From positions 44,232 through 108,231 of the forward strand of contig DATMWB010000003.1 of NCBI GenBank assembly GCA_035562735.1: a stretch of DNA of 64,000 nt, in the 5' to 3' direction. The notes under the pieces are model-generated. The model did no database searches, was not told where the DNA came from, and was given only the letters and a program-made list of their open reading frames with translations. Numbering within the stretch: the stretch's first letter is position 1; the number at the start of each line of letters is the position of its first letter. The stretch is from Candidatus Methanoperedens sp. (GTDB lineage Bacteria > Patescibacteriota > Microgenomatia > UBA12405). Both the position numbers and the translations under genes were made by a program. Positions 5,799 through 63,311 of this stretch are shown here, one piece after another.

Positions 5799-7571
5799 AT
5801 GATTAATCAAAAAACATATCAAAAACCAGCTTTAAATCCAGCTCTTCAAAAGGATTTCACGAGGACACCTCATATACAAAATTTATCTAATGGTCAAGAT
5901 GCTGTCCGCATTTCTTCACTAGGCGCTTTTGGAGATGTAACTCAAAACATGTTCGTTTACGAGTTTGCCCCACGAGGGGACTTCTCAAAATCTCAAATCA
6001 TTATCGTCGATTGTGGTGTTGGTTTTCCTGAAGAAGACGCCTTTGGTGTTGATCTTCAAATTCCTGATACAACTTATTTGCTAGACAAAAAAGAACGGAT
6101 ATTGGGAATTTTTATTACCCATGGTCATGAAGACCATATTGGGGCTATTCGTTACGTATTACCAATATTAGGCAACAATATCCCCATCTTTGCTCCAAAA
6201 TTAGCAGCTGCCTTTATTGAATCGCGACTAGCAGAAAACCAAATTCGAGCCTCGGTTTCTGTCTATCAATCTGGAGATATTTTCAACAAAGGTCCTTTTA
6301 CTATCGAACCCATTAGAGTGACCCATTCAATTCCAGACACTCATCATTTTGCAATCACCACTCCAATTGGCGTTTTTTACCACGGATCTGATTTTAAGTT
6401 TGACGTCTTTCCGATTGACAACAAACCTGCAGAACTGAAAAAAATTGCCAATGCCGGTAACAAAAAAGTTATCGCTTTAATGTCTGATTCGCTAGGTGCC
6501 GACCACGAAGGTTATTCTCCGTCTGAACGAGATATTGCTGAAAACTTTAAGCATCAAATAGTCAACGCCAAGGGGCGAGTCTTTGTTACTTCTATTAGTA
6601 GTAATATTGTCCGTTGGGGTCAGGCTATCGAGTATGGAAAATCAACAGGTAGAAAAATTTGTGTTGTTGGTTATTCTGTCGATAAAGCTATCAATATTGC
6701 CAAAGAATTAGGTTATATTAAATTGGCTGATACCGATATGATTGCCCCAGAACGAGCCAAAAATTTCCCCGACAACAAGCTTTTATTTTTAGTTGCCGGT
6801 TTTGCCGGTCAACCCGATTCGGCATTGAGCAAAATGGTTATGGGTAAGCATCGTGTCAAAATAAAATCAGGTGACAAAGTAATCTTTTCCTCTCCAGACT
6901 ATATTCCTGGAACTACCAGTAATATCTACGAAATGATCGATATTCTTTCCAAAATGGGTGCTGATGTTGCCTATGGAGAAAAAGAAGAACTTCATGTCTC
7001 CGGTCATGGTTACCAAAAAGAACACGCCCTTCTGATGACCCTAACTAACCCTCGATATCTATTACCAATTGGTGGTAATTTCCGACATGTAAAAAGCTAT
7101 TTTTCAATGGCCAAAATAATGGGATTTACTGACGACCAATTTATTACCCCAGATTTCGATTCTGCAGTTACCTTTTATGCTAATGGTAAAGTTGATACCA
7201 ATTTTCATATTCCCATGCATAAGGTTCTAATTGATGGTCTTGGAATAGGTGATGTCGGTGCCACAGTTCTTCGCGATAGGAAAACTTTAGCTGAAGATGG
7301 AATGTTTAGTGTAGTTCTAATGGTCAATAAAGAAGATGGCACAATGTTTAAGGAACCAGTAATTCTCTCTCGGGGTTTTGTGTTTATGAAAGAAAACACC
7401 GATCTTATTGATTATCTAAAAGAAGAGGTTAAAAGACGCTTCGGAGAAGTTACTAGCAAGCCTGCCAACTTTGATTATATTAGAACTGAACTTCAGGCCT
7501 ATCTCGAAAACATTATCAAGGAAAAAACTGGTCGCGAACCCATGGTTCTACCACTGGTTATTGAGGTCTAA
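5799..7571 (+). CDS. rnj: Ribonuclease J (metallo-beta-lactamase/beta-CASP RNase)
   Basis: 590 aa with the HGHEDHIGA motif, beta-CASP region and RNase J C-terminal domain. Confidence 0.85.
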   Translation: MINQKTYQKPALNPALQKDFTRTPHIQNLSNGQDAVRISSLGAFGDVTQNMFVYEFAPRGDFSKSQIIIVDCGVGFPEEDAFGVDLQIPDTTYLLDKKERILGIFITHGHEDHIGAIRYVLPILGNNIPIFAPKLAAAFIESRLAENQIRASVSVYQSGDIFNKGPFTIEPIRVTHSIPDTHHFAITTPIGVFYHGSDFKFDVFPIDNKPAELKKIANAGNKKVIALMSDSLGADHEGYSPSERDIAENFKHQIVNAKGRVFVTSISSNIVRWGQAIEYGKSTGRKICVVGYSVDKAINIAKELGYIKLADTDMIAPERAKNFPDNKLLFLVAGFAGQPDSALSKMVMGKHRVKIKSGDKVIFSSPDYIPGTTSNIYEMIDILSKMGADVAYGEKEELHVSGHGYQKEHALLMTLTNPRYLLPIGGNFRHVKSYFSMAKIMGFTDDQFITPDFDSAVTFYANGKVDTNFHIPMHKVLIDGLGIGDVGATVLRDRKTLAEDGMFSVVLMVNKEDGTMFKEPVILSRGFVFMKENTDLIDYLKEEVKRRFGEVTSKPANFDYIRTELQAYLENIIKEKTGREPMVLPLVIEV

Positions 7572-7594
7572 GTTTTTTTTAGATAAACTTATTT

Positions 7595-7648
7595 TGCCCG
7601 CCTTTGTTTGCGATTTTTTCCCAGACAGGACGGGCATCCTTGTTTTTT
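7595..7648 (+). terminator. Weak hairpin plus T-run after rnj
   Basis: TGCCCGCC …loop… GGACGGGCA followed by TCCTTGTTTTTT. The loop is long, so this is a weak call. Confidence 0.3.
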
Positions 7649-7692
7649 AGGTTTAAATTTGGAGTTTGCAACAAATTTATCCTAAAAACACA

Positions 7693-7722
7693 ATCCCGAT
7701 GAGACTTTAGTCGACATCGGGA
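7693..7722 (+). promoter_or_regulatory. 9-bp inverted repeat (ATCCCGATG / CATCGGGAT) just upstream of a leaderless-type promoter
   Basis: A perfect 9-bp stem with a 12-nt loop, 15 nt upstream of the TGgTAAAAT box. Confidence 0.35.
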
Positions 7723-7736
7723 TATCTCCTAAATTT

Positions 7737-7745
7737 TGGTAAAAT
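7737..7745 (+). promoter_or_regulatory. Extended -10 (TGgTAAAAT) 5 nt upstream of ATG 7751, with no SD
   Basis: TG at 7737-38 and TAAAAT at 7740-45. The ATG at 7751 has no purine-rich SD between them. Confidence 0.35.
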
Positions 7746-7750
7746 ATCTC

Positions 7751-8320
7751 ATGAAAATACTTTCAATTTGCGGTTCCCCCCGAAAAGGCAATTCTGAAAC
7801 CATTCTTTTAGAACTCCAAAAACTTTTTAAAGAAAAAGGCGTTGAAAATGAAATAATTTTACTTCGTCAAAAAAATATCAACCGCTGTCATGGTTGTGTT
7901 GAATTTTGCAACCCTGCTGGGCTTTGTTGTCAAAAAGATGATGTAAGTTCTATTATCGATAAAATGGTGGAATCAGACGCCCTAATTATCATCTCCCCAA
8001 ACTATTTTCAAATGCCACCCGGATTGTTAAAAGACTTAATGGACAGGACCTGCGTAATTTTTGCCAGTGCCAAGGACGAGTTATTAAAAAATAAAAAAAT
8101 CGCTGTTATTGCTCTTGGTGCTGAGGAGGCAAAAGAAAGTCAAGTCTGCGCTGAAAATATTGCCAAGTTATATTGTCGCTATATTGGAAAAGTGGTTATA
8201 ACCAAAAGCTTTCAATCCAACAGTGAGCTAAAAGGAAATTTTAACGATATTCTAGAAAATTCTTATAATCCCGACATTAAAGCATCTCTCAATTCCATTG
8301 TAAAAGCTCTGTTAAAATAA
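7751..8320 (+). CDS. Flavodoxin-like NADPH-dependent FMN reductase / iron-sulfur flavoprotein
   Basis: It has the MKILSICGSPRKGNSE flavodoxin-like N-terminus typical of NADPH-dependent FMN reductases and a Cys cluster (CHGCVEFCNPAGLCCQ). The track start at 7736 is a TTG, and 7751 is the first ATG. Confidence 0.6.
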   Translation: MKILSICGSPRKGNSETILLELQKLFKEKGVENEIILLRQKNINRCHGCVEFCNPAGLCCQKDDVSSIIDKMVESDALIIISPNYFQMPPGLLKDLMDRTCVIFASAKDELLKNKKIAVIALGAEEAKESQVCAENIAKLYCRYIGKVVITKSFQSNSELKGNFNDILENSYNPDIKASLNSIVKALLK

Positions 8321-8323
8321 GCC

Positions 8324-10030
8324 ATGAAGTACTCACAACTTTTTGGTAAAACAAGCAAGACAGTTTCCAAGGATGCTACCGTCGCCAGTCATCGTCTTCT
8401 TCTTCAGGCTGGTTTCATTCGCCAACTTGCCGCAGGACGATACACCCTCCTTCCTCTCGGTCTAAAAGTATGTAAAAAAATTGAAAATATTATTAGAGAA
8501 GAGGTGGAAAAAACTGGAGCCCAAGAGTTAATTGTCCCTACTCTCCATCCAATTGAATTATGGCAACAAGCTAATCGAGATAAAAAATTTGGTGCTGCCA
8601 TGATGATGGTTAATGACCGTAATCAAGCCCAATTTACTTTAGGTGCTACTGCAGAAGTAATAATGTTGGACTTAGTCAAACAATTTGCCCCAAGCTACAA
8701 GGATTTACCTATAAATATCTACCAATTTTCCCAGAAATTTCGCGACGAAGCTCGTCCTTCTGGAGGTCTTTTACGAACCCGTGAATTTGTCATGAAAGAT
8801 GGTTATTCTTTTCATACAAACGAAGCCGACTTAAAAGAAACTTATCAAAAATATTGGGACGCTTATTTGAATATTGCCCAAAAATTAGATTTAAAAATTA
8901 TTGTTGTTGAATCAGACAATGGTGCTATTGGTGGGGCTGTTTCCCATGAATTTATGGTTGAATCTGAGGTGGGGGAGGACACTATTGCTACTTGTACCTG
9001 TGGATATGCTGCTAATTTGGAAAAAGCCTCCTTTGTCAAAAATTCTATTAATCTTGATGAAGCTGAAAAAGAACTAAGTGAAGTTGAAGCAGTCAGAGGT
9101 ACGACCATGGAAGATGGAGTCAAGTTACACAATTTACCTCTTAACTTACAAATCAAAGATGTGGTCTACGTTGACGAAAAAGGTCGCTTTATTTTGGCCA
9201 TTATCCGAGGTGATTTTATGGTTAATGAAACTAAATTAAAAAATTTAGTTCTTTCAAATGAATTACGCCATGCCACCGAAGAGGAAATCATCAACATTCT
9301 TCATTCTGTCCCTGGCTTTATTTCTCCGGTTGGAATAAGACAAAATATTGACCCCAAATCTGAGTTTATAATTGTTGCCGACGACTCTTTGCGCACTGTA
9401 AAAAACTGTTATGGTGGTTCCAACAAGAAAAATATTGACCTTCTCAATGTAAATATTGACCGTGACTATAAGGCCGATCTAGAAGGTGACATCGCCGCTG
9501 CCTGTGAGGGAGATATCTGTCCCCAGTGTAAATCTCAAAAACTACATTTAATAAAAGCCGTAGAGTTTGGCAATATTTTTAATATCGGCTATGCCTATTC
9601 TGATCCCATGAATGGAAACTACACTGACAAAGATGGTTCCCTAAAAAAGCTTTACATGGGTTCTTACGGAATTGGTATAGGAAGAGCAATGGCAATTGAT
9701 GTGGAAGTGCATCATGATGACACTGGGATAGTATGGCCAAAAAGTTTAGCCCCATATCAAGTTCACTTAATTGGTCTTGATGGTATGGGTGAAGATTTTT
9801 ATCAAGAATTACTTTTAAAGAATATTGATGTCCTTTTTGACGATCGCGATAGTGTTTCCGCTGGCGCAAAATTTGCTGACGCTGATTTAATAGGAATTCC
9901 TATTAGATTGGTTATCAGCAAGAGAAGTCAGGAAAAAGGTGGAATCGAATATAAATTAAGATCCCAAAAAGAGTCAGAAATTATAGACAAAAAAAATCTT
10001 ATCTCAAAAATTACTAATTACTTTAACTAA
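8324..10030 (+). CDS. proS: Prolyl-tRNA synthetase
   Basis: 568 aa with a class II aaRS core and ProRS-specific motifs (…HRLLLQAGFIRQ…, anticodon-binding C-terminus). Confidence 0.9.
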   Translation: MKYSQLFGKTSKTVSKDATVASHRLLLQAGFIRQLAAGRYTLLPLGLKVCKKIENIIREEVEKTGAQELIVPTLHPIELWQQANRDKKFGAAMMMVNDRNQAQFTLGATAEVIMLDLVKQFAPSYKDLPINIYQFSQKFRDEARPSGGLLRTREFVMKDGYSFHTNEADLKETYQKYWDAYLNIAQKLDLKIIVVESDNGAIGGAVSHEFMVESEVGEDTIATCTCGYAANLEKASFVKNSINLDEAEKELSEVEAVRGTTMEDGVKLHNLPLNLQIKDVVYVDEKGRFILAIIRGDFMVNETKLKNLVLSNELRHATEEEIINILHSVPGFISPVGIRQNIDPKSEFIIVADDSLRTVKNCYGGSNKKNIDLLNVNIDRDYKADLEGDIAAACEGDICPQCKSQKLHLIKAVEFGNIFNIGYAYSDPMNGNYTDKDGSLKKLYMGSYGIGIGRAMAIDVEVHHDDTGIVWPKSLAPYQVHLIGLDGMGEDFYQELLLKNIDVLFDDRDSVSAGAKFADADLIGIPIRLVISKRSQEKGGIEYKLRSQKESEIIDKKNLISKITNYFN

Positions 10031-13097: not shown

Positions 13098-13529
13098 ATG
13101 TCATGTTGTAACAACAAAGAATGCAGTTGCCATCAAAATAGTAGCTTTGTATTTGGGATATTTATAGGCTTAATCATTGGTGCAGTTATTGCTATTGTTA
13201 TCTATAAAAATAATCGTGAAAAGGTCTTTGAGAATTTAAAAAAGAAACTAGAAAAAATATTTAAATCGGTTTTGGAAAGTGAAACTTTTCAAAATATTTC
13301 TACACTAAAAAGAAAAGTGGATATTAACAATTCGGCAAAAATATCCAAAAAAATAGTAAAAAAGTCTTCCTCAAAAAATAGTGCGTTGTCCAAACAAAAA
13401 AGTATGGCAAAAGAAGTACCCTCAACATCTCATAAGATTGCTGTAACTCTTCCAAAAGAATTGATTCAAAGAGAGTTTGAAGTAAAGGCACCCCCTCAAA
13501 AGATTAAACCAAGAGTTTTTAAAAAGTAG
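13098..13529 (+). CDS. Small membrane protein with N-terminal Cys cluster and Lys-rich tail
   Basis: It has CCNNKECSCH, then a TM helix, then a K/S-rich low-complexity tail. Its family is unknown. Confidence 0.4.
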   Translation: MSCCNNKECSCHQNSSFVFGIFIGLIIGAVIAIVIYKNNREKVFENLKKKLEKIFKSVLESETFQNISTLKRKVDINNSAKISKKIVKKSSSKNSALSKQKSMAKEVPSTSHKIAVTLPKELIQREFEVKAPPQKIKPRVFKK

Positions 13530-13557
13530 CCTATAACTTGACTTAAATATCGTCGAT

Positions 13558-13566
13558 TGTTATAAT
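13558..13566 (+). promoter_or_regulatory. Extended -10 TGtTATAAT heading a long structured leader
   Basis: TGTTATAAT at 13558-66 lies 30 nt after the upstream stop and about 270 nt upstream of the lipoprotein ATG. Confidence 0.3.
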
Positions 13567-13582
13567 CACCTAATGCAATTTT

Positions 13583-13623
13583 AAGCGAACCTAAGGCAAC
13601 ACGTCTTTCCGTTCGCTTTTTTT
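13583..13623 (+). terminator. Hairpin (AAGCGAAC…GTTCGCTT) plus T7 run, either a terminator for ORF 13098-13529 or an attenuator in the leader
   Basis: An 8-bp stem with a 20-nt loop is followed by TTTTTTT. Confidence 0.45.
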
Positions 13624-13633
13624 GTATCGATAT

Positions 13634-13660
13634 TTGAATACGCATTATATGCGTATTCAA
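13634..13660. repeat. Perfect palindrome TTGAATACGCA-ttata-TGCGTATTCAA
   Basis: It has 11-bp perfect arms and a 5-nt spacer. It could be an operator-like site or a hairpin. Confidence 0.7.
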
Positions 13661-13672
13661 AGTACCTTAACA

Positions 13673-13686
13673 ATCGAGAGTGAGTA
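13673..13686 (+). repeat. Left copy of the 14-bp inverted repeat ATCGAGAGTGAGTA flanking the lipoprotein cassette
   Basis: It is the exact reverse complement of 14731-14744. Confidence 0.75.
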
Positions 13687-13693
13687 AAAAATA

Positions 13694-13759
13694 TACAAGT
13701 TTAGACTTGCACCAAGGACACAAGAAATTGCTTCCTTGATGCAAGTTTTCAAACTTGTA
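13694..13759 (+). promoter_or_regulatory. Long imperfect hairpin in the 5' leader of the lipoprotein gene
   Basis: TACAAGTTTAGACTTGCACCAAGGA …loop… TCCTTGATGCAAGTTTTCAAACTTGTA forms a stem of about 25 bp with one bulge. An SD (AAGGAGG, 13824-30) lies downstream. Confidence 0.45.
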
Positions 13760-13838
13760 TAAGATAAAGTCTTATCCTCCCTGTTTCTCCACCCCTAGCC
13801 AGCCTTAAAACTGGCAACCGCTCAAGGAGGCGGTAACA

Positions 13839-14669
13839 ATGTTCCACCGTGTGTTTGTTTTTCTCACCGTATTGGCAATGCTCCTCGGAGCTGCTGGTTG
13901 TTCCCCCCAAAACCAAGCCAACGTTGAAGCTTGGAACACTTTGTTTTTTGGTTCAGAAATTGAACTTCAGAACCAACCACCCGAGTACAGCGAGACGCTT
14001 CTGGATGCCATCAATAAGTATATTGGCGAAAATTGTCCAATGAAAAAAGATTATGATATTGATGGTAATGGACAGATGTACACCATTTGTCGTGATTTTG
14101 AAGGTGAGGCAATCGAAGTTAAGTCAGCTGATTTCTTGGGTCTAGGTCTTGTTGGCTTGACTGCCGTCAGCCCAATTCCTGGAGATGAACTCCTTGCTGT
14201 CAAGTGGGCCTGGAACTCAGAAAAGACAATCAAGGTCATTATTGCGGTTGTCTTCACTGTTGAGGTTGCCCACACCATCAATGTTGTTTACAGCAAAACA
14301 AGCAACCCGCTTCACAACCCACATAACTCGCAGGTAGCTCGTGATTACATCAGTAGAATTTGGAACGATATCCAAATAAAGTTGAGTAATCCCAAAAATC
14401 CCACCGGACCTATACTGTATTGCGCTGTCGTCGTCTATCAAAACGGAGTTCAATATGTCCGTGTGTTGAGTACTGTTGATAACGTTACCGGGATCATGTC
14501 CTGGTATGGAAGTGAAGGATGGGTACACGCCTTTGACAACAAAGACGTCTATGGTTTTCTTAATGGCATGCCTCGTGGAGCCATTTCCTACGACGTCAGT
14601 CGTCCCCTGCAAGATTGCTTAAACGCACTTGGTAAAGGTGTCCCCGCCGCGAATCAATACGCACCCTAA
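13839..14669 (+). CDS. Lipoprotein of unknown function (G+C-rich relative to surroundings)
   Basis: It has a signal peptide with a lipobox (LLGAAG|C), a strong SD 8 nt upstream and a visibly higher G+C than neighbouring genes. No family is recognised. Confidence 0.6.
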   Translation: MFHRVFVFLTVLAMLLGAAGCSPQNQANVEAWNTLFFGSEIELQNQPPEYSETLLDAINKYIGENCPMKKDYDIDGNGQMYTICRDFEGEAIEVKSADFLGLGLVGLTAVSPIPGDELLAVKWAWNSEKTIKVIIAVVFTVEVAHTINVVYSKTSNPLHNPHNSQVARDYISRIWNDIQIKLSNPKNPTGPILYCAVVVYQNGVQYVRVLSTVDNVTGIMSWYGSEGWVHAFDNKDVYGFLNGMPRGAISYDVSRPLQDCLNALGKGVPAANQYAP

Positions 14670-14678
14670 AAACCCTAT

Positions 14679-14720
14679 GGTTGGTACTGGCTAACCCCAG
14701 TACCAACCCCCTTCGGGGGA
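14679..14720. terminator. Tandem hairpins between convergent genes (12-bp perfect stem, then a CCCC-cUUCGg-GGGG tetraloop hairpin)
   Basis: The first hairpin is GGTTGGTACTGG-ctaacc-CCAGTACCAACC. The second is CCCCCTTCGGGGG. Confidence 0.5.
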
Positions 14721-14730
14721 CCACAAGCAC

Positions 14731-14744
14731 TACTCACTCTCGAT
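14731..14744 (-). repeat. Right copy of the 14-bp inverted repeat (TACTCACTCTCGAT)
   Basis: It is the reverse complement of 13673-13686, and the pair bracket 1,072 bp. Confidence 0.75.
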
Positions 14745-14749
14745 TTACA

Positions 14750-15367
14750 TTATTCCTCAACTTTTCCAAACACTTCTCTTAGTGATTCATTTACTGTCTT
14801 ATTTTGAACTTGTTCAATTAGTTGTTGTTGATAAGCTACAATTTCCCCATCGGTAATTCCACCCTTTTCCATTATTGTTTTTGCGTGTACTTCGTCTAAA
14901 ATTGATTCTCCGACCTCATCACCAATTCTACCAAGCAAGTTAATCACTATTGGTTTGATTAAAGCTTTTTGTTCCACTGTCAATTCCTCACTTGTCAATC
15001 CCTCAACAATCCACTCCGTAGTTTTATTTTGTAACTCAGCTGGAGGTTCAAAACATTTTCCCTGAGTACTCCAAACCAAAAAGGCGTCGCTAAAAGATTC
15101 TGCCAACACCATTCCCATTCCACTTCTCAATGCGACCCCGTATAAGTCTGTTTGTTCTGAAACATAATTCTCAACCGAAGCTATAACATCTAAATTATTA
15201 TCAATTCTAGCCACGCCATAGACAAATGCTAGTGATTCTACCCCCAATTTATCAATATTTCCCTTATTCATTTCCGTCACCGCTCTCACATCTTCAATTG
15301 AAGACCTTGCTCCGAGTGGTGTCACTTGCATTCCATCAAATATTGAGCGTGATTGTTCTGCAGCCAT
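14750..15367 (-). CDS. Hypothetical acidic protein (205 aa)
   Basis: A clean ORF divergent from alaS. No recognisable domain. Confidence 0.45.
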   Translation of the reverse strand: MAAEQSRSIFDGMQVTPLGARSSIEDVRAVTEMNKGNIDKLGVESLAFVYGVARIDNNLDVIASVENYVSEQTDLYGVALRSGMGMVLAESFSDAFLVWSTQGKCFEPPAELQNKTTEWIVEGLTSEELTVEQKALIKPIVINLLGRIGDEVGESILDEVHAKTIMEKGGITDGEIVAYQQQLIEQVQNKTVNESLREVFGKVEE

Positions 15368-15388: not shown

Positions 15389-15397
15389 TGCTATAAT
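15389..15397 (+). promoter_or_regulatory. Extended -10 TGcTATAAT 6 nt upstream of the alaS ATG (leaderless geometry)
   Basis: TGCTATAAT at 15389-97 with the ATG at 15404 and no SD. Confidence 0.4.
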
Positions 15398-15403
15398 CTC
15401 CCT

Positions 15404-17278
15404 ATGAACGCACGGGATTTGAAAAACAAATTTGTTGATTTTTTCAAAAACTATCAACATGCCGAAATTCCCAGTGCTTCAATTGTTCCCGAAAACGATC
15501 CCACCACTCTTTTCATTTCTGCTGGCATGCACCCCCTCGTTCCTTATCTCTTAGGTCAACCCCATCCTCTAGGCAAAAGGTTAGTTGATGTTCAAAAATG
15601 TATTCGTACTGGCGATATCGATGAAGTCGGTGATACCTATCATCACACTTTTTTTGAAATGCTTGGCAACTGGTCTCTTGGTGACTATTTCAAAAAAGAG
15701 ATGATTGCTTTTTCCTATGAGTTTTTAACCAACAAAAAATATCTAGGTCTTGATGTATCAAAATTAGCTTTCAGCTGTTTTGCTGGTGATCAAGACGCTC
15801 CTCGTGACGAAGAAAGTTTCAATTTTTGGCGTGAACAGGGAGTTAGTCCCAGCAGAATTGCCTATTTACCTAAAAAAAATAATTGGTGGGGTCCCGCTGG
15901 AGCTACTGGCCCCTGTGGTCCAGATACCGAAATGTTTTATTGGACAGGGGAGAGTGAAGCACCCGAAAAATTTGATGCCAATGATAGTCGTTGGTTGGAA
16001 ATTTGGAATGACGTTTTTATGCAGTACAACAAAAAAGCCAATGGTACCTTTGAAGCACTAAAAGCTCCAAACGTTGATACAGGTATGGGGGTTGAGCGAA
16101 CTACTGCAGTTTTATCGGGCTTATCGGATAATTATCAAACCTACATTTGGCAACCAATAATTCAAAAAATAGAGGAAATCTCTGGGAAAAAATATGTCGC
16201 TGCAATGAATAATCCCGTCATTGCGAGTAGCACATCCGTCATTGCGAGCGAAGCGAAGCAATCTTCTAAAAAAATCGCCACCTTATCTTCTACTTCTAAC
16301 GATGACGCCCGAAGTTTTCGCATTATCGCTGACCATATAAAGGCTGCAGTTTTTATGATTGCCGACAGTGTTGAACCCTCAAACAAAGAGCGTGGTTATG
16401 TTCTCCGTCGTCTTATTAGACGTAGTATCCGTCAAGGTAAAATTTTGGGAATAGAGCAAAATTTTTGCTCTATTATTGCCACTACTGTTTTAGACAATCA
16501 AAACAATTATGCTGGTACCTATTCCGAACTAGATTCAAACAAAAATAAAATTTTAGAGACTTTAGAGGCTGAAGAAACCAAATTTCGTCGCACTCTCAAC
16601 AAGGGTCTTAGTGAAATTACAAAATTAATTATCCGTCAAAAAAGTGTCTCCGGAAAAGAAGCTTTTGACTTATACCAATCCTTTGGTTTCCCCGTCGAAA
16701 TGATAGAGGAAGAATTAAGAAGAAACAATTTATCTTTAGATATTGCCGAGTTTAACCGTCTAAAAGAGGAACATCAAAAACTATCTCAAACTCTTTCTGC
16801 CGGAAAATTCAAGTCAGGTTTAGCTGATAATTCCGAAATTATCACCAAATATCACACTACTACCCATCTAATGCACGCCGCTCTTAGAAAAGTTTTGGGT
16901 GAGCATGTTGAACAAAGTGGTTCCAATATTACCTCAGAAAGACTTCGTTTTGATTTTTCCCATCCGCAAAAAGTTGCCGAAGATCAGCTAAAAGAAGTCG
17001 AAAAAATAGTCAATGAACAAATTAATGCCTCACTTTCCGTCACTGTGGAATCTATGAAATTTACTGATGCCCAAAAATCTGGTGCCTTAGCCTTTTTTGG
17101 CGCTAAATACCCAGAAATTGTTACTGTCTATACAGTCGGTGACCCAAAAAGTTTTTTTTCAAAGGAAGTCTGTACCGGCCCCCATGTCGATAATGTTGGG
17201 AAATTAGGTCATTTTGAAATTCAAAAAGAAGAATCCGCAGGCAGTGGCAAGCGTCGGATTTATGCTATTCTTAAGTAA
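15404..17278 (+). CDS. alaS: Alanyl-tRNA synthetase, short form lacking the C-Ala domain
   Basis: Met at 15404 aligns to the AlaRS N-terminus (…FVDFFKNYQHAEIPSASIVPENDPTTLF…). The catalytic and editing domains are present (HxxxH …CTGPHV). The ORF ends right after the editing domain. Confidence 0.88.
   Translation: MNARDLKNKFVDFFKNYQHAEIPSASIVPENDPTTLFISAGMHPLVPYLLGQPHPLGKRLVDVQKCIRTGDIDEVGDTYHHTFFEMLGNWSLGDYFKKEMIAFSYEFLTNKKYLGLDVSKLAFSCFAGDQDAPRDEESFNFWREQGVSPSRIAYLPKKNNWWGPAGATGPCGPDTEMFYWTGESEAPEKFDANDSRWLEIWNDVFMQYNKKANGTFEALKAPNVDTGMGVERTTAVLSGLSDNYQTYIWQPIIQKIEEISGKKYVAAMNNPVIASSTSVIASEAKQSSKKIATLSSTSNDDARSFRIIADHIKAAVFMIADSVEPSNKERGYVLRRLIRRSIRQGKILGIEQNFCSIIATTVLDNQNNYAGTYSELDSNKNKILETLEAEETKFRRTLNKGLSEITKLIIRQKSVSGKEAFDLYQSFGFPVEMIEEELRRNNLSLDIAEFNRLKEEHQKLSQTLSAGKFKSGLADNSEIITKYHTTTHLMHAALRKVLGEHVEQSGSNITSERLRFDFSHPQKVAEDQLKEVEKIVNEQINASLSVTVESMKFTDAQKSGALAFFGAKYPEIVTVYTVGDPKSFFSKEVCTGPHVDNVGKLGHFEIQKEESAGSGKRRIYAILK
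16216..16264 (+). repeat. Interspersed repeat copy A (partial unit plus full unit) inside the alaS coding sequence, in frame
   Basis: CGTCATTGCGAGtagcacatc + CGTCATTGCGAGCGAAGCGAAGCAATCT. It translates as VIASSTSVIASEAKQS within a loop insertion relative to canonical AlaRS. Confidence 0.7.
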
Positions 17279-33527: not shown

Positions 33528-34010
33528 ATGTCAAGAAAAGGTCAAATAAAAATTAGAGAAGTCCTACCCGACACTGAATACAAGAGTGTTGTAGTTACCA
33601 AGCTTATCAATCGTGTTATGTATGCCGGCAACAAAAATGCTGCTCAAAAACAGGTTTATGAAGCATTGCAACTTTTTAAAAAAGAAAGTAAAAGTGAAGA
33701 TATTATTACTACTCTCGAACAAGCACTTGATAATTTGAAACCAAAAGTTGAGGTTCGTCCTCGTCGTATTGGTGGCGCTGTTTATCAAGTTCCCACACCT
33801 GTGCGAGGTAGTCGTCAATATTCCCTTGCCATTCGCTGGTTGGTAACTTCAGCTAGAAAAAGACCCAACAAACAATATCATTCCTTTGCCCTAAAGTTAG
33901 CTGCCGAACTCTTAGCCACCCTAAACAATGAGGGCTCTTCTATTGCTAAGCGTCAAGAAATTGAGAGAATGGCCGAAGCCAATCGCGCCTTTGCTCATTT
34001 GCGTTGGTAA
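33528..34010 (+). CDS. rpsG: 30S ribosomal protein S7
   Basis: 160 aa, typical S7. Confidence 0.95.
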   Translation: MSRKGQIKIREVLPDTEYKSVVVTKLINRVMYAGNKNAAQKQVYEALQLFKKESKSEDIITTLEQALDNLKPKVEVRPRRIGGAVYQVPTPVRGSRQYSLAIRWLVTSARKRPNKQYHSFALKLAAELLATLNNEGSSIAKRQEIERMAEANRAFAHLRW

Positions 34011-34027
34011 AAAGCTAATTGCAATAA

Positions 34028-34063
34028 TTCGTCATTGCGAGGAGGTACTCCGACGAAGCAATC
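34028..34063 (+). repeat. Interspersed repeat copy C (between the rpsG stop and a terminator)
   Basis: TCGTCATTGCGAGgaggtactccgacGAAGCAATCT. Confidence 0.7.
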
Positions 34064-34074
34064 TATTTTAAAAT

Positions 34075-34102
34075 AAAAAAGTCCCCTGTATAGGGGACTT
34101 TT
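34075..34102. terminator. Rho-independent terminator after rpsG (bidirectional-type hairpin)
   Basis: AAAAAGTCCCCT-gtat-AGGGGACTTTTT, a 12-bp stem with flanking A and T runs. Confidence 0.75.
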
Positions 34103-34136
34103 TAGTTATTTGTTCTATCATGTATCTGATATATAT

Positions 34137-34145
34137 TGATATAAT
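34137..34145 (+). promoter_or_regulatory. Extended -10 TGaTATAAT 5 nt upstream of ATG 34151 (leaderless geometry)
   Basis: Its spacing to the ATG is identical to that of the 7737 element, with no SD. Confidence 0.4.
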
Positions 34146-34150
34146 AAGTA

Positions 34151-34570
34151 ATGTCGAGGTATGAATTGTTTCAACACTTAGTTGGAGAAGAAATAAGAAA
34201 AAGTAATCCCCATGGCAAATTACAGGTTGTTGGCGATACCTCTACTTTAGAAGACGACGAAAGACTTTTCCATATCGCTGGGGAACTCATTTCAAATTGT
34301 GCCGAAAAGGGAGCTGAAGAGATAACTTTAACTCTAACACCACGGCTAATAGTCGTAGAAGACAATTTAGTTCACACCCCAGAAGAAGTGGAAAAAATTC
34401 TTGAAAATATTCAGCAACCACTACCAGTAACCAATAAAGCTATCGTTGAAAACGGTCAATCAATTCGTGGTTTTGGTATTTTTAGTGTTCGAAACACTCT
34501 CCTTGAAATTGGTGCTTCCTTGTTTTATGAACATCGTGATGGTCGAATAATCGCTAGAGTTGAATTATAA
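34151..34570 (+). CDS. Small GHKL (histidine-kinase-like) ATPase domain protein, anti-sigma-factor/SpoIIAB-like size
   Basis: 139 aa with an N-box-like ELISNCAEKG and a G-box-like GFGIFSVRNTLLEIGASL. There is no sensor or DHp domain. Confidence 0.5.
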   Translation: MSRYELFQHLVGEEIRKSNPHGKLQVVGDTSTLEDDERLFHIAGELISNCAEKGAEEITLTLTPRLIVVEDNLVHTPEEVEKILENIQQPLPVTNKAIVENGQSIRGFGIFSVRNTLLEIGASLFYEHRDGRIIARVEL

Positions 34571-37060: not shown

Positions 37061-37621
37061 ATGATGAAATTTACCCCACTCTCCATTCCTGGACTAGTTC
37101 TTGTTGAACCTCAAGTATTTGGTGATGAAAGAGGTTTTTTTATGGAAACTTACAGTAAAAAAGAGTTTGCTGAAGCTGGTATAAATGTTGATTTTGTTCA
37201 AGACAACCACTCCCGATCTACCCAAGGGGTGCTCCGCGGACTTCATTTTCAAAAACCACCTTTTGCCCAAGCAAAACTTGTTAGAGTTACTCAAGGTGAA
37301 GTTTTGGATGTGGCTGTTGATATTCGACCCGATTCTCCGACCTTTGGTAAATGGGATTCAGCGCATCTTACCGCTGAAAACAAAAAAATGTTTTATCTTC
37401 CCGAAGGTTTTGCACATGGATTTTATGTCTTAACCGAAACAGCCGATTTCCAATACAAGTGTACCAACTTCTACAATAAGGAATCTGAAGGCGGTCTACT
37501 TTGGAATGACCCTGATATCAATATTGCTTGGATGGCTCCAAGTCCCACTCTTTCCGACAAAGATAAAAACTGGCCAAATCTAAAAGATATTGAAGCCGAG
37601 CTTAAAACCCTCAAGTGGTAA
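37061..37621 (+). CDS. rfbC: dTDP-4-dehydrorhamnose 3,5-epimerase
   Basis: Cupin RmlC motifs (…RGFFMETY…, …RGLHFQ…). Confidence 0.88.
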   Translation: MMKFTPLSIPGLVLVEPQVFGDERGFFMETYSKKEFAEAGINVDFVQDNHSRSTQGVLRGLHFQKPPFAQAKLVRVTQGEVLDVAVDIRPDSPTFGKWDSAHLTAENKKMFYLPEGFAHGFYVLTETADFQYKCTNFYNKESEGGLLWNDPDINIAWMAPSPTLSDKDKNWPNLKDIEAELKTLKW

Positions 37622-37684
37622 CAATAAATTTAACATTAAAAAATCTTATACTTTTTAATGAATTTTCAATAAACAACTTTTTGT

Positions 37685-37716
37685 CCCCCTTATTAAGGGG
37701 GATTAAGGGGGTTTAA
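37685..37716 (+). terminator. G/C hairpin (CCCCCTTA…TAAGGGGG), a duplicated GGGGG arm and then TTT after rfbC
   Basis: CCCCCTTATTAAGGGGGATTAAGGGGGTTT. Confidence 0.3.
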
Positions 37717-37739
37717 ATTATTAATTTAAAAATTTTTTT

Positions 37740-38624
37740 ATGAAAATTATTGGCACAGGTCTCACCGGTTTGGTTGGTTCAAGAATCATTGAGCTTAATC
37801 CAGATGTTGAATTCATCAATATTTCTATTGAAACTGGGATCAGTATCCTTGATCCTATTCAGCTAGAAAAAGTGTTTACCGACAATCCTGACGCAGATGC
37901 GGTTTTACATCTGGCTGCCTTTACTGACACCAACGGTGCCTGGGAGCAAAACGGTGATAAAAATGGTCTATGTTATCAGCTCAATGTCACCGGAACTCAA
38001 AATATTGTTGATTTGTGTAAAAAATACGATAAATATTTAATTCATATTTCCACCGACTTTGTTTTTGATGGAAAAAAAGTTGGAAAATATACCGAAGATG
38101 ACCTTCCAAATCCTATCGAATGGTACGGTCAAACCAAATATTTTTCTGAAAAAGTTGTCCTAGATTCAGGCATTTTATCCTCTATTGTTAGACTGGCTTT
38201 TCCTTACCGAGCCAATTTTGAACCCAAAAAAGATATCATCCGCAAAATTATTGATGGTTTCAAAGCTGGTAAGCTCTATCCCCAATGGACCGACCATTTT
38301 ACCAGTCCAGTCTTTATTGACGATATAGCCAATGCCCTAAAAGTATTTTTTGAAAAAAAACCTATCGGAATCTATCACTTAGTTGGTTCCTCTTCGCAGT
38401 CACCTTTTGAAATGTGTCAATTCATCGCAGAAGTTTTTGGATTTGATAAAAGTATAGTTCAAGCCAGCACCTTGGCAGATTATGTCAAATCATTACCCGA
38501 AGGTTCACGCCCATGGCAATACAATTTATCCTTAAGTAACGAAAAAATAAAATCTCTCGGTATTCAAATCAAAACCTTAAAAGAAGGTCTTGAAGAGATG
38601 AAAAGACAGACGGAAAACACTTGA
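37740..38624 (+). CDS. rfbD: dTDP-4-dehydrorhamnose reductase-like NAD(P)-dependent epimerase/dehydratase
   Basis: It has a Rossmann N-terminus (GTGLTGLVGS) and the YGQTKYFSE catalytic motif typical of RmlD. Confidence 0.65.
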   Translation: MKIIGTGLTGLVGSRIIELNPDVEFINISIETGISILDPIQLEKVFTDNPDADAVLHLAAFTDTNGAWEQNGDKNGLCYQLNVTGTQNIVDLCKKYDKYLIHISTDFVFDGKKVGKYTEDDLPNPIEWYGQTKYFSEKVVLDSGILSSIVRLAFPYRANFEPKKDIIRKIIDGFKAGKLYPQWTDHFTSPVFIDDIANALKVFFEKKPIGIYHLVGSSSQSPFEMCQFIAEVFGFDKSIVQASTLADYVKSLPEGSRPWQYNLSLSNEKIKSLGIQIKTLKEGLEEMKRQTENT

Positions 38625-39857: not shown

Positions 39858-40535
39858 ATGAGCGACAATCGTTCTTTGACAATCGAAGGTGGGTCGACCG
39901 TGACCATCAGTTTCAAGACTGATCCCGCCAATGATTGGCAGCTAACGCTGCAAAACGTTCGGGAAGAGGAAGGCGGAATTTTCGCCGACAATTTTCTTCT
40001 TGCCCGGAAAAACGGTCAACATTTCTTTGCCAAACTCGTAAAAGTTTTGGGGATCAAAGCCGACGGATCAGAATTTCCGTACTGGCTTCCCAGGATTTTT
40101 GACATCGGGAATGGCTACAAATGTGGAGATGTCGTAATTCAGTTTCGCAAACACCCCCAGTCGAAACGCTGGATGGTTGATGTGGAATCAGAATACGGCA
40201 GCAAGTCTCCCGATCTCCTAGAAAAGGTTATCCGAATCAGTCGTTCTTCGCTTGACAATATCAAGCAGGCTGTTAAGAAAACCGTCAAGGAAACCGGACA
40301 AGACTGGCTCAACTCTCAGCGTATTGGTGGAGACAAAGTTTCCATGCATTGCGTTGACGCAGGTTGGTCACCACAGCTTTTTGCTCAGGGCAAGGTAATG
40401 GATGTTTTCGACTTCGTTGCAAATTCCCATGATGGTCCCGGGAAAATCGCACTAGTTGAAGCACTTCAACACCTTCCCACCCCCATCGCCAAGCAAGTCG
40501 CGATGTGTATCATTGTTCCTCCAACCGAGGAATAA
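39858..40535 (+). CDS. Hypothetical protein, G+C-rich orphan gene
   Basis: A 226-aa ORF with a strong SD and markedly higher G+C than its neighbours. No recognisable domain. Confidence 0.5.
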   Translation: MSDNRSLTIEGGSTVTISFKTDPANDWQLTLQNVREEEGGIFADNFLLARKNGQHFFAKLVKVLGIKADGSEFPYWLPRIFDIGNGYKCGDVVIQFRKHPQSKRWMVDVESEYGSKSPDLLEKVIRISRSSLDNIKQAVKKTVKETGQDWLNSQRIGGDKVSMHCVDAGWSPQLFAQGKVMDVFDFVANSHDGPGKIALVEALQHLPTPIAKQVAMCIIVPPTEE

Positions 40536-40631
40536 AAAACTAGCCAGATGCTAGAACAAGCATGCCGACACCCCATGTGTTGACGTTTTAAGCTGACGTC
40601 TCCTACGTTCGGTCGAAGCACAATTTTTTAT

Positions 40632-40689
40632 GTGTCCTCTTCTCTGATTTCAGACTTCGGTCTGTTTAAAAAATCAGGGAAGGGGACAC
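40632..40689. promoter_or_regulatory. Nested hairpin with a 19-bp outer stem (2 G·U if RNA) enclosing a 5-bp stem with a UUCG tetraloop
   Basis: GTGTCCTCTTCTCTGATTT-[CAGAC-TTCG-GTCTG]-tttaaaa-AAATCAGGGAAGGGGACAC. No U-run follows in either orientation, so it is not a canonical terminator. Confidence 0.5.
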
Positions 40690-40698
40690 AGTTATATT

Positions 40699-41934
40699 TC
40701 AAATTCTCTTCCCCACTCTCTCTCCCTCTCTCACAGCATAATTAATACCCCTGTCTTCCGGATATATTTGTGCAAAGTTAACATGAATAACTTTATTTTC
40801 TACATTAGTTTTTCTCTCCGTCTTGTCATTATAATTTTTGGTAACTATATGTTGTGCATATTTAAATCTAAAAACATGTTTTTCAATAAGTCCTTTTTCA
40901 CTAAATTCAGGAAAAATTTTCTTTAAATAGTCAAAAAAATCTTTTTCAATTAAAGAGTCTTTGCATGTAAAATATTTGTGATTTTGGGGCAAATAAGTCC
41001 CCATATAATAAATATTTTTTCCGCCATAATTCTCTGTCCCCATTAGGTTTGTATGTTGAATAAAGGCCAAAAAAGGGGAGTTGATATCATTGATATTATG
41101 CCAATAATAAGGACTTAAACTCTGTTTTGAAGAAAAAACCATCGTCACCGCTCCCAAATAATCAATACCATCTAATGGCGCCGAGCTAATAATTCTATCG
41201 AATCCGTCATCGCGAGTGTAATCACGAAGCAATCTTTCTGGATTGGTCTCAATATTCGTCTTTATCTCTCCTCCCAACTCTTTTATTCTTTTTTCCAATT
41301 CATCAATAATTATTTGAAATCCTCCTTCCATATAACCTAGATACTCTTTCCCCCTTTCACTCGAATTACCTCTTGTATGAATTCTTGCCCACATCCATGC
41401 CATTGAAATATCTTGATATCTATCGTTAAATTTACCTTTTAATAGTGGCTCCCAGACTACTTTATAAGCATTTTCCCCACACCATTTTCTCATCCACTCA
41501 TAAGCCAAAACATCTTCAAATTTCTTCCAATTCTTTTCTCTTTCTAGATAGATTTTAACTAGTCCCAATCTCAACTTATCAAATAAATTTAGAGGTTTAA
41601 ATTTTAATAAATCTATTACCCCTGCAAACGGATATATAGTTCCACTGTAATATAGAGCAGTTTTACTCTCAAACCATTTTAACTTATTTTCCAAACCCAA
41701 CTCCTTGATCAAAGCAATTATTTCTTTGTCAGTTTTAAAAATGTGATGATAAGCTTTCTCTAAATTCGTCCCTTCAATTTTAAATCCCCCCAACAATCCA
41801 CCCAAACTATCACTTCTCTCAAAAATTATTACCTTATGACCCTTTTGAAGCATTCTGTATCCCACCACCAAACCTGTTATTCCTCCGCCGATTATTGCAA
41901 TTTTTTGTTTTTTCACTTCCAAATTATATCTCAA
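40699..41934 (-). CDS. FAD-dependent oxidoreductase (amine-oxidase / UDP-galactopyranose-mutase-like Rossmann family)
   Basis: It has the dinucleotide-binding motif IAIIGGGITGLVVG…E…GGL at the N-terminus and is about 410 aa. It sits in a sugar-nucleotide context. Confidence 0.6.
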   Translation of the reverse strand: MRYNLEVKKQKIAIIGGGITGLVVGYRMLQKGHKVIIFERSDSLGGLLGGFKIEGTNLEKAYHHIFKTDKEIIALIKELGLENKLKWFESKTALYYSGTIYPFAGVIDLLKFKPLNLFDKLRLGLVKIYLEREKNWKKFEDVLAYEWMRKWCGENAYKVVWEPLLKGKFNDRYQDISMAWMWARIHTRGNSSERGKEYLGYMEGGFQIIIDELEKRIKELGGEIKTNIETNPERLLRDYTRDDGFDRIISSAPLDGIDYLGAVTMVFSSKQSLSPYYWHNINDINSPFLAFIQHTNLMGTENYGGKNIYYMGTYLPQNHKYFTCKDSLIEKDFFDYLKKIFPEFSEKGLIEKHVFRFKYAQHIVTKNYNDKTERKTNVENKVIHVNFAQIYPEDRGINYAVREGERVGKRI

Positions 41935-42264: not shown

Positions 42265-42300
42265 CAAAAAAAGCGGGTGTCTTGCCCGTTTTTATTTTTT
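42265..42300. terminator. A-run / GCGGG…CCCG hairpin / T-run (bidirectional-type)
   Basis: AAAAAAGCGGGTGTCTTGCCCGTTTTTATTTTTT. Confidence 0.45.
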
Positions 42301-62421: not shown

Positions 62422-62654
62422 GCTTCTGCTATTGGACCCTTTAGCTTCACTTCGTTAAACTTTTTTATATTTTTTATGGTTTTTTTAAGCGCCTTATATC
62501 GTTTTTCCACGTCACTGGCTTCGGTAAAGATTTCTGATACCACCAACAATTCCTTATCACTATTTTTCTTTGTCATTTTTTTATATAAATTTTGGTTTCA
62601 GTTTTGAGGAGTTATTTAAAAATAATTTAGATAAAAATTAGTTAAATAATATTC

Positions 62655-62687
62655 TCTCCCCTCCTTTCAAAGGAGGGGCAGGGGAGG
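62655..62687. terminator. G/C-rich hairpin downstream of the convergent korB gene
   Basis: CCCCTCCTTT-caa-AGGAGGGG followed by CAGGGGAGG. Confidence 0.3.
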
Positions 62688-63311
62688 TTAACTTTGTTTT
62701 AATTGTTTTCCAAAACTTACACACAGCTGTTCCAAATCTAAAAGATGAAAACCTTTGTGACTTATGGCCCTTTCCATCGCCTCATTCACTTTTAGAGGTT
62801 CTTTACAATCAAGATGTTCAGCAGTCACTTCTGGATTTACAGTTTTTAGTAACTCCACTGGCATCAAAGCCACACTTGGTACACCGTGAGGTGTCGATTT
62901 TGTCTTGGTCCCCTTTGGAGTAGTAGGGCTACTTTGACCAGTAGTCAGAGAATAGAGATGGTTATTGGCCACGATTACGGTAATATCGATGTTTAATCTA
63001 GCTGCGGCTATCAAGTGACTCAATCCTTCACCATAAATTCCTCCGTCACCACCAATAGCAATCACATTTAGTTCGGGGTTGGCCAATTTTATTCCCACTG
63101 CAGTTGAAATAGATCTACCATGAAGAGAGTGGACTCCCCACCCTTTAACGAAGTCAGCCATGTTACCAATACAACCAATATCATAGACAATAACAGTCTT
63201 ATCTTGGTCAAGATTTAATTTTGCCAAAGTACCCTGTAAACCAGCAAAAATAACATAATCTTCACACCCAGGACACCATGTAGGGATAACCCCTGATCGC
63301 CAATTAGTCAT
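62688..63311 (-). CDS. 2-oxoacid:ferredoxin oxidoreductase beta subunit (TPP-binding)
   Basis: …WCPGCEDY… N-terminus and the TPP-binding GDGG motif (…IAIGGDGGIYGEGL…). Confidence 0.8.
   Translation of the reverse strand: MTNWRSGVIPTWCPGCEDYVIFAGLQGTLAKLNLDQDKTVIVYDIGCIGNMADFVKGWGVHSLHGRSISTAVGIKLANPELNVIAIGGDGGIYGEGLSHLIAAARLNIDITVIVANNHLYSLTTGQSSPTTPKGTKTKSTPHGVPSVALMPVELLKTVNPEVTAEHLDCKEPLKVNEAMERAISHKGFHLLDLEQLCVSFGKQLKQS

Follow-up and report, generated by a model that had tools for sequence, protein, structure and literature searches.

A strongly conserved, structured leader precedes a fast-evolving lipoprotein gene of Shapirobacteria and shares an inverted 15-nt core with the gene's 3′ flank

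To our knowledge, a frame of inverted, conserved sequence around a gene has so far been described mainly for ribosomal RNA (rRNA). The locus analysed here shows the same succession of parts as the pre-rRNA leader-trailer frame of the Escherichia coli rrn operons: a promoter, a variable hairpin, a boxA-like sequence, a nearly invariant leader strand, and the complement of that strand 3′ of the gene (PMC10250234, PMC5725501). In rrn operons, boxA-bound Nus factors have been proposed to keep boxC close to the polymerase up to the emergence of the trailer, and these operons provide the precedent for boxA together with a leader-trailer helix (PMC10250234). The leader described here is the 309-bp spacer at positions 13530-13838 of a 64,000-nt stretch of contig DATMWB010000003.1 (hereafter the window), which lies between a ytxH-like gene (13098-13529) and a lipoprotein open reading frame (ORF; 13839-14669), both on the + strand. 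Judged from homologous loci, the spacer is a strongly conserved, structured leader in front of a fast-evolving, predicted surface lipoprotein gene of Shapirobacteria.

Several other described systems resemble parts of this locus. In Staphylococcus aureus, the 3′ untranslated region (UTR) of icaR pairs with the Shine-Dalgarno region of its own mRNA and blocks translation. Type I 3′-UTR-derived small RNAs (sRNAs) such as DapZ and MicL have a promoter at the end of the upstream gene, whose terminator they share. The ompA and aprE mRNAs possess a long structured 5′ UTR with a hairpin at its extreme 5′ end, acting as a stabiliser, in front of an envelope protein gene. Invertons and phase switches, e.g., fimS and the invertible promoters of Bacteroides, place short exact inverted repeats beside a surface-protein gene.

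All homologous loci have the same gene order: FtsK, HTH_25, an 80-aa gene, a gene of about 130 aa, the spacer, the lipoprotein gene, a converging gene of about 205 aa, and AlaRS. The size of the spacer among them is 286-311 bp. Seven distinct versions of the leader, all from Ca. Shapirobacteria, were compared (the window, L003, L012, L008, L011, L004, and L027), and the comparison of the 3′ region covers nine lineages, i.e., the same seven together with L031 and L032. The compared lineages fall into about three groups. The principal elements are:

13538-13566, + strand: promoter P, composed of TTGACT (13538-13543), a 17-nt spacer, and TGtTATAAT (13558-13566), with a start predicted at about 13572-13573
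13573-13627, + strand: H1, a three-tier, terminator-type hairpin with a U7 run (13617-13623)
13633-13661, + strand: H2, a perfect palindromic hairpin with 13-bp arms, z −5.5
13662-13687, + strand: the invariant block GTNCNTTAACAATCGAGAGTGAGTAA, 26 nt between H2 and H3
13672-13686, + strand: left copy of the 15-nt core AATCGAGAGTGAGTA, part of the invariant block
13692-13761, + strand: H3, a long imperfect hairpin of about 25-29 bp, −32.7 kcal/mol, z −10.3
13839-14669, + strand: lipoprotein gene, 276 aa, with a signal peptide and the lipobox LLGAAGC
14679-14708, + strand: H4, a 12-bp hairpin GGTTGGTACTGG/CCAGTACCAACC, nearly invariant in nine lineages
14707-14719, + strand: H5, a CCCCC-TTCG-GGGGG hairpin, almost invariant
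14731-14745, − strand: right, inverted copy of the 15-nt core (TACTCACTCTCGATT on the + strand), 4-10 nt past the stop codon of the 205-aa gene
14750-15367, − strand: converging gene, 205 aa, encoding an all-helical repeat protein and present at every copy of the locus

The invariant block is unchanged in the seven leader versions except at its two N positions. Its 15-nt core and the inverted copy beyond the lipoprotein gene match exactly wherever a lineage covers both sides, and the right copy is unchanged in nine of nine. No other feature of the locus restricts its interpretation as much as this inverted recurrence, which a preliminary description of the spacer had overlooked. The edges of core identity are the same in all lineages, and the adjoining linkers vary. 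With three mismatches allowed, the window contains no further copy of the core apart from one chance-level match. A search with an 18-mer among 185,579 species genomes returned only the two known Shapirobacteria loci and six unrelated chance matches, and the viral contigs yielded one chance match. Both flanking genes show a coding pattern of substitution (differences at position 3 > position 1 > position 2), and their third codon positions are 0.5-0.6 different between the main lineages, which is near saturation. The nucleotide identity of the leader equals or exceeds that of this flanking coding DNA, the leader contains blocks that never change, and flank blocks of 15-55 nt stay unchanged while the lipoprotein diverges. 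On this comparison, the agreement between the most conserved block of the leader and a conserved trailer block of which it is the reverse complement, both frozen across lineages, cannot be chance.

The leader strand is complementary to a trailer strand that lies just 3′ of the enclosed gene. The 15-bp leader-trailer duplex has a calculated energy of −24.6 kcal/mol, and in co-folds of leader and trailer the 15 core pairs form with a probability of 0.95-0.97 in all seven lineages. In H4, an A to G change in L011 gives a U-G pair and is wobble-compatible on the + strand only; the strand-informative changes in H1 and H4 favour an RNA of the + strand. Between the lipoprotein stop codon and the trailer copy, no U-run terminator was found on the + strand. 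The spacer 14670-14749 is among the most conserved stretches of the locus, with a nucleotide identity of 0.83-0.93. A U-run follows H4/H5 on the minus strand in some lineages only, and neither direction presents a canonical terminator.

Promoter P begins 9 nt past the ytxH-like stop codon. It agrees with the consensus at 11 of 12 positions and has the TG extension in addition, its two sigma-70 hexamers stand at a spacing within the 16-18 nt range, and it is the best promoter-like site between 12.8 and 15.5 kb. The hexamers and the TGn are kept in the seven lineages and the sequence of the 17-nt spacer drifts, a pattern that is the classic footprint of a real promoter. H1 is built from a main stem, AAGCGAAC/GTTCGCTT (13583-13590/13611-13618), an inner stem, AAGGC/GTCTT, and an outer helix, ATGCAA/TTGTAT (13573-13578/13622-13627), which a preliminary description of the spacer had not included. 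Its energy is −16.4 kcal/mol (z −4.0). H1 is near-invariant in the seven lineages, loop included, and its two inner helices are paired in 100% of the alignment cells. Where it does change, pairing is preserved: a compensatory CG to GC exchange is found in L027, and three one-sided changes retain G-U or A-U pairs. The + strand form is more stable than the minus strand form in all seven lineages (−18 to −20 vs −10 to −15 kcal/mol, a gap of 3-9 kcal/mol). This stability and the pairing-preserving changes indicate an RNA hairpin of the + strand.

As an intrinsic terminator, H1 has a G+C-containing stem followed by at least six U (−13 kcal/mol, T7); one terminator scan skipped it solely because the loop limit of that scan was 8 nt. 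Canonical hairpin-plus-U-run sites follow other genes of the window, e.g., at 42295, 61662, and 34080 (minus strand), and the upstream ftsK-to-ytxH operon has no terminator candidate other than H1. With its own promoter and a terminator shared with the upstream gene, P plus H1 has the layout of a type I 3′-UTR-derived sRNA. The conserved promoter hexamers, the near-invariant H1 with its U7 run, and the + strand stability thus lend support, at the sequence level, to the small terminated noncoding RNA proposed in the preliminary description; it would be the product, approximately 50 nt long, of a small RNA gene that shares the operon terminator. Unlike DapZ and MicL, this RNA would consist almost only of the terminator hairpin, and it lies directly before another gene, which it would also attenuate. 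Inspection of the alignment revealed no conserved second promoter between H1 and the lipoprotein start codon, and transcription of the lipoprotein gene therefore probably depends on read-through of H1.

No base-pairing target for the H1 RNA, i.e., no complementarity of at least 12 nt, was found within the 64-kb window, and an antisense role of H1 was rejected, as its matches to the invariant block and to start regions across the window did not exceed chance. In the JGI metagenomes, the H1 pattern occurs in just two contigs, both already known. Several independent assemblies break inside or just before H1, and not at the 15-mer repeats (L001 starts at 13584, L013 and L014 at about 13593, and L003 at 13535); a drop of coverage at the hairpin and T7 run, or strain variation upstream, are possible causes.

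The preliminary description had called the density of symmetric elements in the spacer far above background, and the whole leader does fold to −90 kcal/mol, compared with −50.5 ± 4.5 for shuffled sequences (z −8.8; none of 200 shuffles reaches it). Among 1597 windows of 120 nt, ranked by minimum free energy after regression on GC content, those of the leader take positions 2, 8, 15, and 16. The strength of the leader structure is high but not unique, as other intergenic regions of the window are also strongly structured. Further stretches of stable structure after GC correction are 62561-62720, 34001-34200, 40601-40720, 7561-7760, 37601-37760, and 9801-9960, and some coincide with terminator-like sites, at 34080 (minus strand), 37733, and 40624.

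All elements named in the preliminary description were recovered, with small corrections of coordinates, among them the extended −10 TGtTATAAT at 13558-13566, the terminator-like hairpin (stem 13583-13590/13611-13618) with its T7 run at 13617-13623, and the long imperfect hairpin, now placed at 13692-13761. The search that it advised for a conserved leader upstream of lipoprotein homologs revealed one in the seven lineages. Two elements proved larger than described. The palindrome is present, with arms of 13 bp (13633-13645/13649-13661) instead of 11 bp, and so is the inverted repeat that spans H1 and H2, which has 10 bp (13553-13562/13668-13677) instead of 8 bp. Only 7 bp of this spanning repeat persist in six of seven lineages, the L004 version being degenerate, and the left arm of the repeat precedes the predicted transcription start.

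H2 is a palindromic hairpin in every lineage, each time with a different sequence, and seven of its 13 pairs have changed on both sides. Taken together, H1 and H2 are paired in 93% of cells and contain eight double-change pairs, compared with 4.0 ± 1.3 in shuffles, of which 1 in 500 reaches that number; when the partners are slid by one to three columns, pairing falls to 27-59%. No further copy of the H2 palindrome was found in the window. H3 persists in all seven lineages with differing sequence; at its place, L004 and L027 have unrelated sequence, yet it also forms a hairpin, of 13 bp plus 7 bp.

The first 11 nt of the invariant block (13662-13687) resemble boxA, for which the consensus is GYTCTTTAANA (PMC5725501). 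Measured against this gamma-proteobacterial consensus, which may not be that of the host, L008 matches perfectly, L004 and L027 have a single mismatch each, and the window has two. The boxA mismatches fall precisely on the two positions at which the block varies. The form of the boxA-like sequence for comparison with the rRNA leaders of the host is GTNCNTTAACAA. At 39858-39895, the start of an unannotated 225-aa ORF, the sequence GTTCTTTGACAATCGAAGGTGGGT matches 18 of the 26 nt of the invariant block (39868-39893) and also resembles a boxA of Gram-positive type; we estimate that about one such match to the block is expected by chance in the window.

Our favoured reading, which we hold tentatively, is that P and H1 give rise to an RNA of about 50 nt and form a leaky stop, and that the mRNA resulting from read-through is closed by a leader-trailer helix, as in pre-rRNA. 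The near-consensus sigma-70 promoter in the 3′ untranslated stretch of the ytxH-like gene would start transcription at about 13572-13573. The first 55 nt would fold into H1, where most transcripts would stop as the approximately 50-nt RNA with paired 5′ and 3′ ends, and some fraction would read through. The read-through RNA would carry H2, the invariant block in single-stranded form, H3, and a hairpin whose loop presents the Shine-Dalgarno sequence. Once the coding sequence, H4, and H5 had been passed, the trailer complement would pair with the core to form a panhandle mRNA, and the level of the surface lipoprotein would then likely be set through protection of the mRNA ends and/or their processing by RNase III. 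As a lead only, the boxA-like sequence directly 5′ of the core might hold the leader near the polymerase until the trailer emerges. By analogy with rRNA, the gene could sit in a complete rRNA-style processing frame, in which the boxA-like site recruits Nus factors, the 15-bp helix forms across about 1 kb, and RNase III cuts it; we consider this fuller version improbable.

Several observations count against closure by a leader-trailer helix. Because the core 15-mer is the same everywhere, it offers no covariation by which selection for pairing could be told apart from selection for sequence, and none of the nine positions of the trailer copy that could take wobble-compatible transitions has done so. 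Helix ends that are equally sharp and flanked by mismatches in all lineages fit recognition of a word better than selection for a helix. A helix of 15 bp spanning about 1 kb of translated RNA is short, given that leader-trailer helices of rRNA have 25-40 bp. Inverted repeats of 14-16 nt within 5 kb occur as 15 chance pairs in this AT-rich window, and the core repeat alone therefore means little; its significance comes from its conservation alone. There is likewise no enrichment of boxA in the AT-rich window, where matches of this quality occur at chance frequency. If H1 terminates efficiently, few transcripts would reach the invariant block.

A different account of the frozen 15-mers, less probable in our view than not but a substantial contender, treats them as a shared recognition word, the putative site of an RNA-binding protein, a trans RNA, or a polar DNA-bound roadblock or regulator. 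Two converging units would present the word in the same sense, one in the 5′ leader of the lipoprotein mRNA (+ strand) and the other in the 3′ UTR of the 205-aa gene mRNA (minus strand), and the complementarity would be a by-product of gene convergence. The absolute invariance of both copies, with identical sharp boundaries in all lineages, agrees with this account. So does the surrounding layout, as a variable linker and then a stable hairpin follow at 5-13 nt on each strand (H3 on the + strand, H5 and H4 on the minus strand), and the distance from the stop codon of the 205-aa gene to the right copy is always 4-10 nt. Every copy of the locus comes with that gene, the product of which is a helical-repeat protein. 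The exact, sharp-edged inverted repeat could instead be a substrate for DNA inversion, since it brackets a complete surface-lipoprotein gene, leaves the promoter outside, and is invariant across lineages as the site of a recombinase would be; the lipoprotein is also fast-evolving, with a tree discordant with that of its neighbor, as under diversifying selection. A recombinase would flip the segment of approximately 1.06 kb that contains H3, the lipoprotein gene, and H4/H5, cutting the gene off from promoter P and placing it co-directionally after the 205-aa gene, with phase variation or a promoter swap as the outcome. However, the orientation is the same in 22 of 22 contigs from nine lineages and many samples, and none of 39 junctions (18 left, 21 right) is inverted. 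Assemblies pass straight through both repeats, with contig ends not at the repeat edges, and the 27 window ORFs scanned, all immediate neighbors included, revealed no recombinase. The 15-mer has no internal dyad symmetry, and inversion leaves the conserved + strand RNA-type features unexplained. The invertons of other bacteria differ in that the promoter is bracketed, whereas here it is the whole gene, for which no inverted form was seen in 22 contigs and no recombinase nearby. We consider an inversion switch unlikely.

The locus might also consist of two unrelated, ordinary units, an sRNA gene of 3′-UTR type (P and H1) with distant targets and then a stabilising 5′ UTR, with no role for the 15-mer. 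A promoter in a 3′ UTR that shares the operon terminator is the layout of type I 3′-UTR-derived sRNAs, and H1 starts at +1 or +2, as do 5′ stabiliser hairpins. H1 nevertheless differs from the 5′ hairpins of ompA and aprE in having a U7 run and a terminator-like appearance, and those mRNAs lack a matching trailer. Two independent units would also leave the invariance of both 15-mer copies and of H4 unexplained next to near-saturated third codon positions, and they are at odds with the absence of a conserved second promoter between H1 and the start codon and of an sRNA target in the window. This explanation is accordingly rated as unlikely too. We find it very unlikely that the locus is a ligand-sensing riboswitch or a protein-controlled attenuator centred on H1, one of the possibilities raised in the preliminary description. 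The order of promoter, terminator, and gene and the invariance of the H1 loop, not just of the stem, would suit such a device, and the conserved structured leader that it presupposes is indeed there. It has no match in Rfam, only about 10 nt of RNA precede H1, which leaves no room for an alternative antiterminator helix, and the conserved bases are spread across stems and not concentrated at junctions. The operator array for a dimeric repressor that the same description had offered, with the H2 palindrome and the other symmetric elements as binding sites, has in its favor a perfect palindrome with 13-bp arms about 60 bp downstream of the start site. This option can hardly be maintained, since the sequence of H2 is not conserved among lineages with the same neighboring genes and its two arms change together. 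The seven double-change pairs are the pattern of a hairpin and not of a conserved protein site, the window contains no second copy of the palindrome, and no regulator gene is linked to it.

Set against pre-rRNA, a leader-trailer frame at this locus would be unusual in several respects. The enclosed gene is protein-coding, as its coding pattern and signal peptide attest, and not an rRNA gene. The helix has 15 bp, compared with 25-40 bp in rrn. The leader strand abuts the boxA-like sequence, whereas in rrn it lies 18-19 nt downstream, and the boxA match is perfect in one lineage only and not above chance. A terminator-type hairpin, moreover, precedes everything else. By analogy, the locus would work most like the pre-rRNA leader-trailer frame; it does not belong to the rrn type, because its gene is protein-coding, its helix is short, and its boxA is a candidate only. 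With icaR it has in common a 3′ untranslated sequence complementary to the 5′ UTR of the same transcript, but here pairing would involve a block some 150 nt upstream of the Shine-Dalgarno sequence, and that sequence itself remains exposed in the loop of its hairpin. Singly, the elements are familiar. Their combination around a protein-coding gene, with frozen 15-mers and confined to a narrow Shapirobacteria clade, matches no described system that we could identify.

Between H3 and the lipoprotein gene, the two small hairpins and the Shine-Dalgarno sequence reported in the preliminary description are all present:

13763-13776, + strand: small GATAA/TTATC hairpin, in five lineages with a shifted register, absent in L004 and L027
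13798-13815, + strand: GCCAG/CTGGC hairpin, in five lineages, with a compensatory GUCAG/CUGAC in L011, absent in L004 and L027
13817-13834, + strand: Shine-Dalgarno hairpin ACCGC/GCGGT, with AAGGAGG (13824-13830) shown in the loop and the start codon at 13839

The stem of the Shine-Dalgarno hairpin covaries across all seven lineages (CCGC/GCGG, CCGGA/UCCGG, and CCGG/CCGG). On the minus strand, a promoter-like site at 13644-13673 agrees with the consensus at 10 of 12 positions. It consists of TTGTTA, the reverse complement of which lies within the invariant block, an 18-nt spacer, and TATAAT in the H2 loop. By hand, a −10-like hexamer (at least five of six positions) was found 16-18 nt from the invariant TTGTTA in six of seven lineages. 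Such a site would drive an RNA antisense to H1 that converges on promoter P; given the AT-rich palindrome, such minus-strand −10 hexamers are likely to arise by chance.

Nearly all genes of the window lie on the + strand, and its content is of a housekeeping kind, including the genes for RNase J, ProRS, FtsK, a RodZ-like HTH_25 protein, AlaRS, rpoB/rpoC, EF-G, EF-Tu, and ribosomal proteins. From gene content and the closest named relatives, the source of the window is a bacterium of the candidate phyla radiation (CPR), of the Shapirobacteria. An identical 205-aa protein carries the label "Candidatus Methanoperedens sp.", and the L004 contig that of an "uncultured Gammaproteobacteria bacterium"; in view of the gene content and of the closest named relatives, these discordant labels of public records are likely due to mis-binning. 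A more distant lineage is represented by a contig of JGI 3300075153, which retains the gene order with a 295-aa lipoprotein homolog, a 205-aa homolog at 52% identity, and a spacer of just 190 nt. The alaS gene looks leaderless: only 6 nt separate an extended −10, TGcTATAAT (15389-15397), from the conserved ATG at 15404, and there is no Shine-Dalgarno sequence. The divergent spacer between alaS and the 205-aa gene, 36-37 nt in length, is kept in all lineages.

The lipoprotein has no match in Pfam, NCBIfam, or PADLOC, and a search of 5.8 billion proteins returned six homolog clusters only, one of them named Candidatus Shapirobacteria; for the converging 205-aa protein there are ten. Amino acid identity of the lipoprotein is 52-92% between lineages and 52-68% between allele classes. 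Conservation is concentrated in its C-terminal 60 residues, and the variation lies in the central part. The lipoprotein tree conflicts with that of the neighboring 205-aa gene. Between the window and L003, the lipoprotein is 92% identical and the 205-aa protein only 82%, whereas between L003 and L012 the 205-aa protein is 90% identical and the lipoprotein only 63%, the L012 allele being nearer to those of L004, L008, and L027. These comparisons suggest about three lipoprotein allele classes that are swapped by recombination within the conserved flanks or the signal-peptide region, and also suggest diversifying or balancing selection on the lipoprotein as a surface protein.

The Rfam scan advised in the preliminary description gave no family for the leader: Rfam 15 has no match at the gathering threshold anywhere in the window, and at E ≤ 10 and E ≤ 5 only generic long-hairpin miRNA models appear, far below threshold. 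No tRNA, tmRNA, or rRNA was found in the window. Other identities of the locus were considered and rejected. A minus-strand ORF at 13496-13660 is interrupted by TAA in L004, and a 12-codon ORF that ends in the invariant block (MRIQSTLTIESE*) is not preserved in L008 and L011, where it is stopped or out of frame. A repeated or mobile element was dismissed on the grounds that neither the palindrome nor the 15-mer pair recurs elsewhere in the window (apart from the one chance-level match to the 15-mer), and a phage origin on the grounds that neither DNA nor protein matched anything in the phage collection. For a dif/Xer site, a replication terminator, an integron attC, or IS200-type ends, the sequences depart from the consensus; gene orientation and GC skew are also unchanged at the locus, and the palindrome sequence is not conserved. 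Against a target of a diversity-generating retroelement stand the conserved C-terminal 60 residues of the lipoprotein, its central variation, and the absence of a reverse transcriptase among the scanned ORFs.

CPR bacteria cannot be grown alone, and their attachment to hosts depends on surface proteins; we know of almost nothing on gene regulation and noncoding RNA in this group. At the locus described here, the untranslated flanks are constant while a lineage-specific lipoprotein diverges, with alleles that appear to have been exchanged between lineages. If the shared word is the site of a protein, a new regulator-site pair would be defined, and if the repeats recombine, they would form a phase-variation switch in a CPR organism. 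If leader and trailer pair, the locus would be the mRNA counterpart of the rRNA leader-trailer helix, and a frame processed in the rRNA style would, if true, give a bacterium with a reduced genome a route to a very stable, end-protected mRNA for a major surface lipoprotein.

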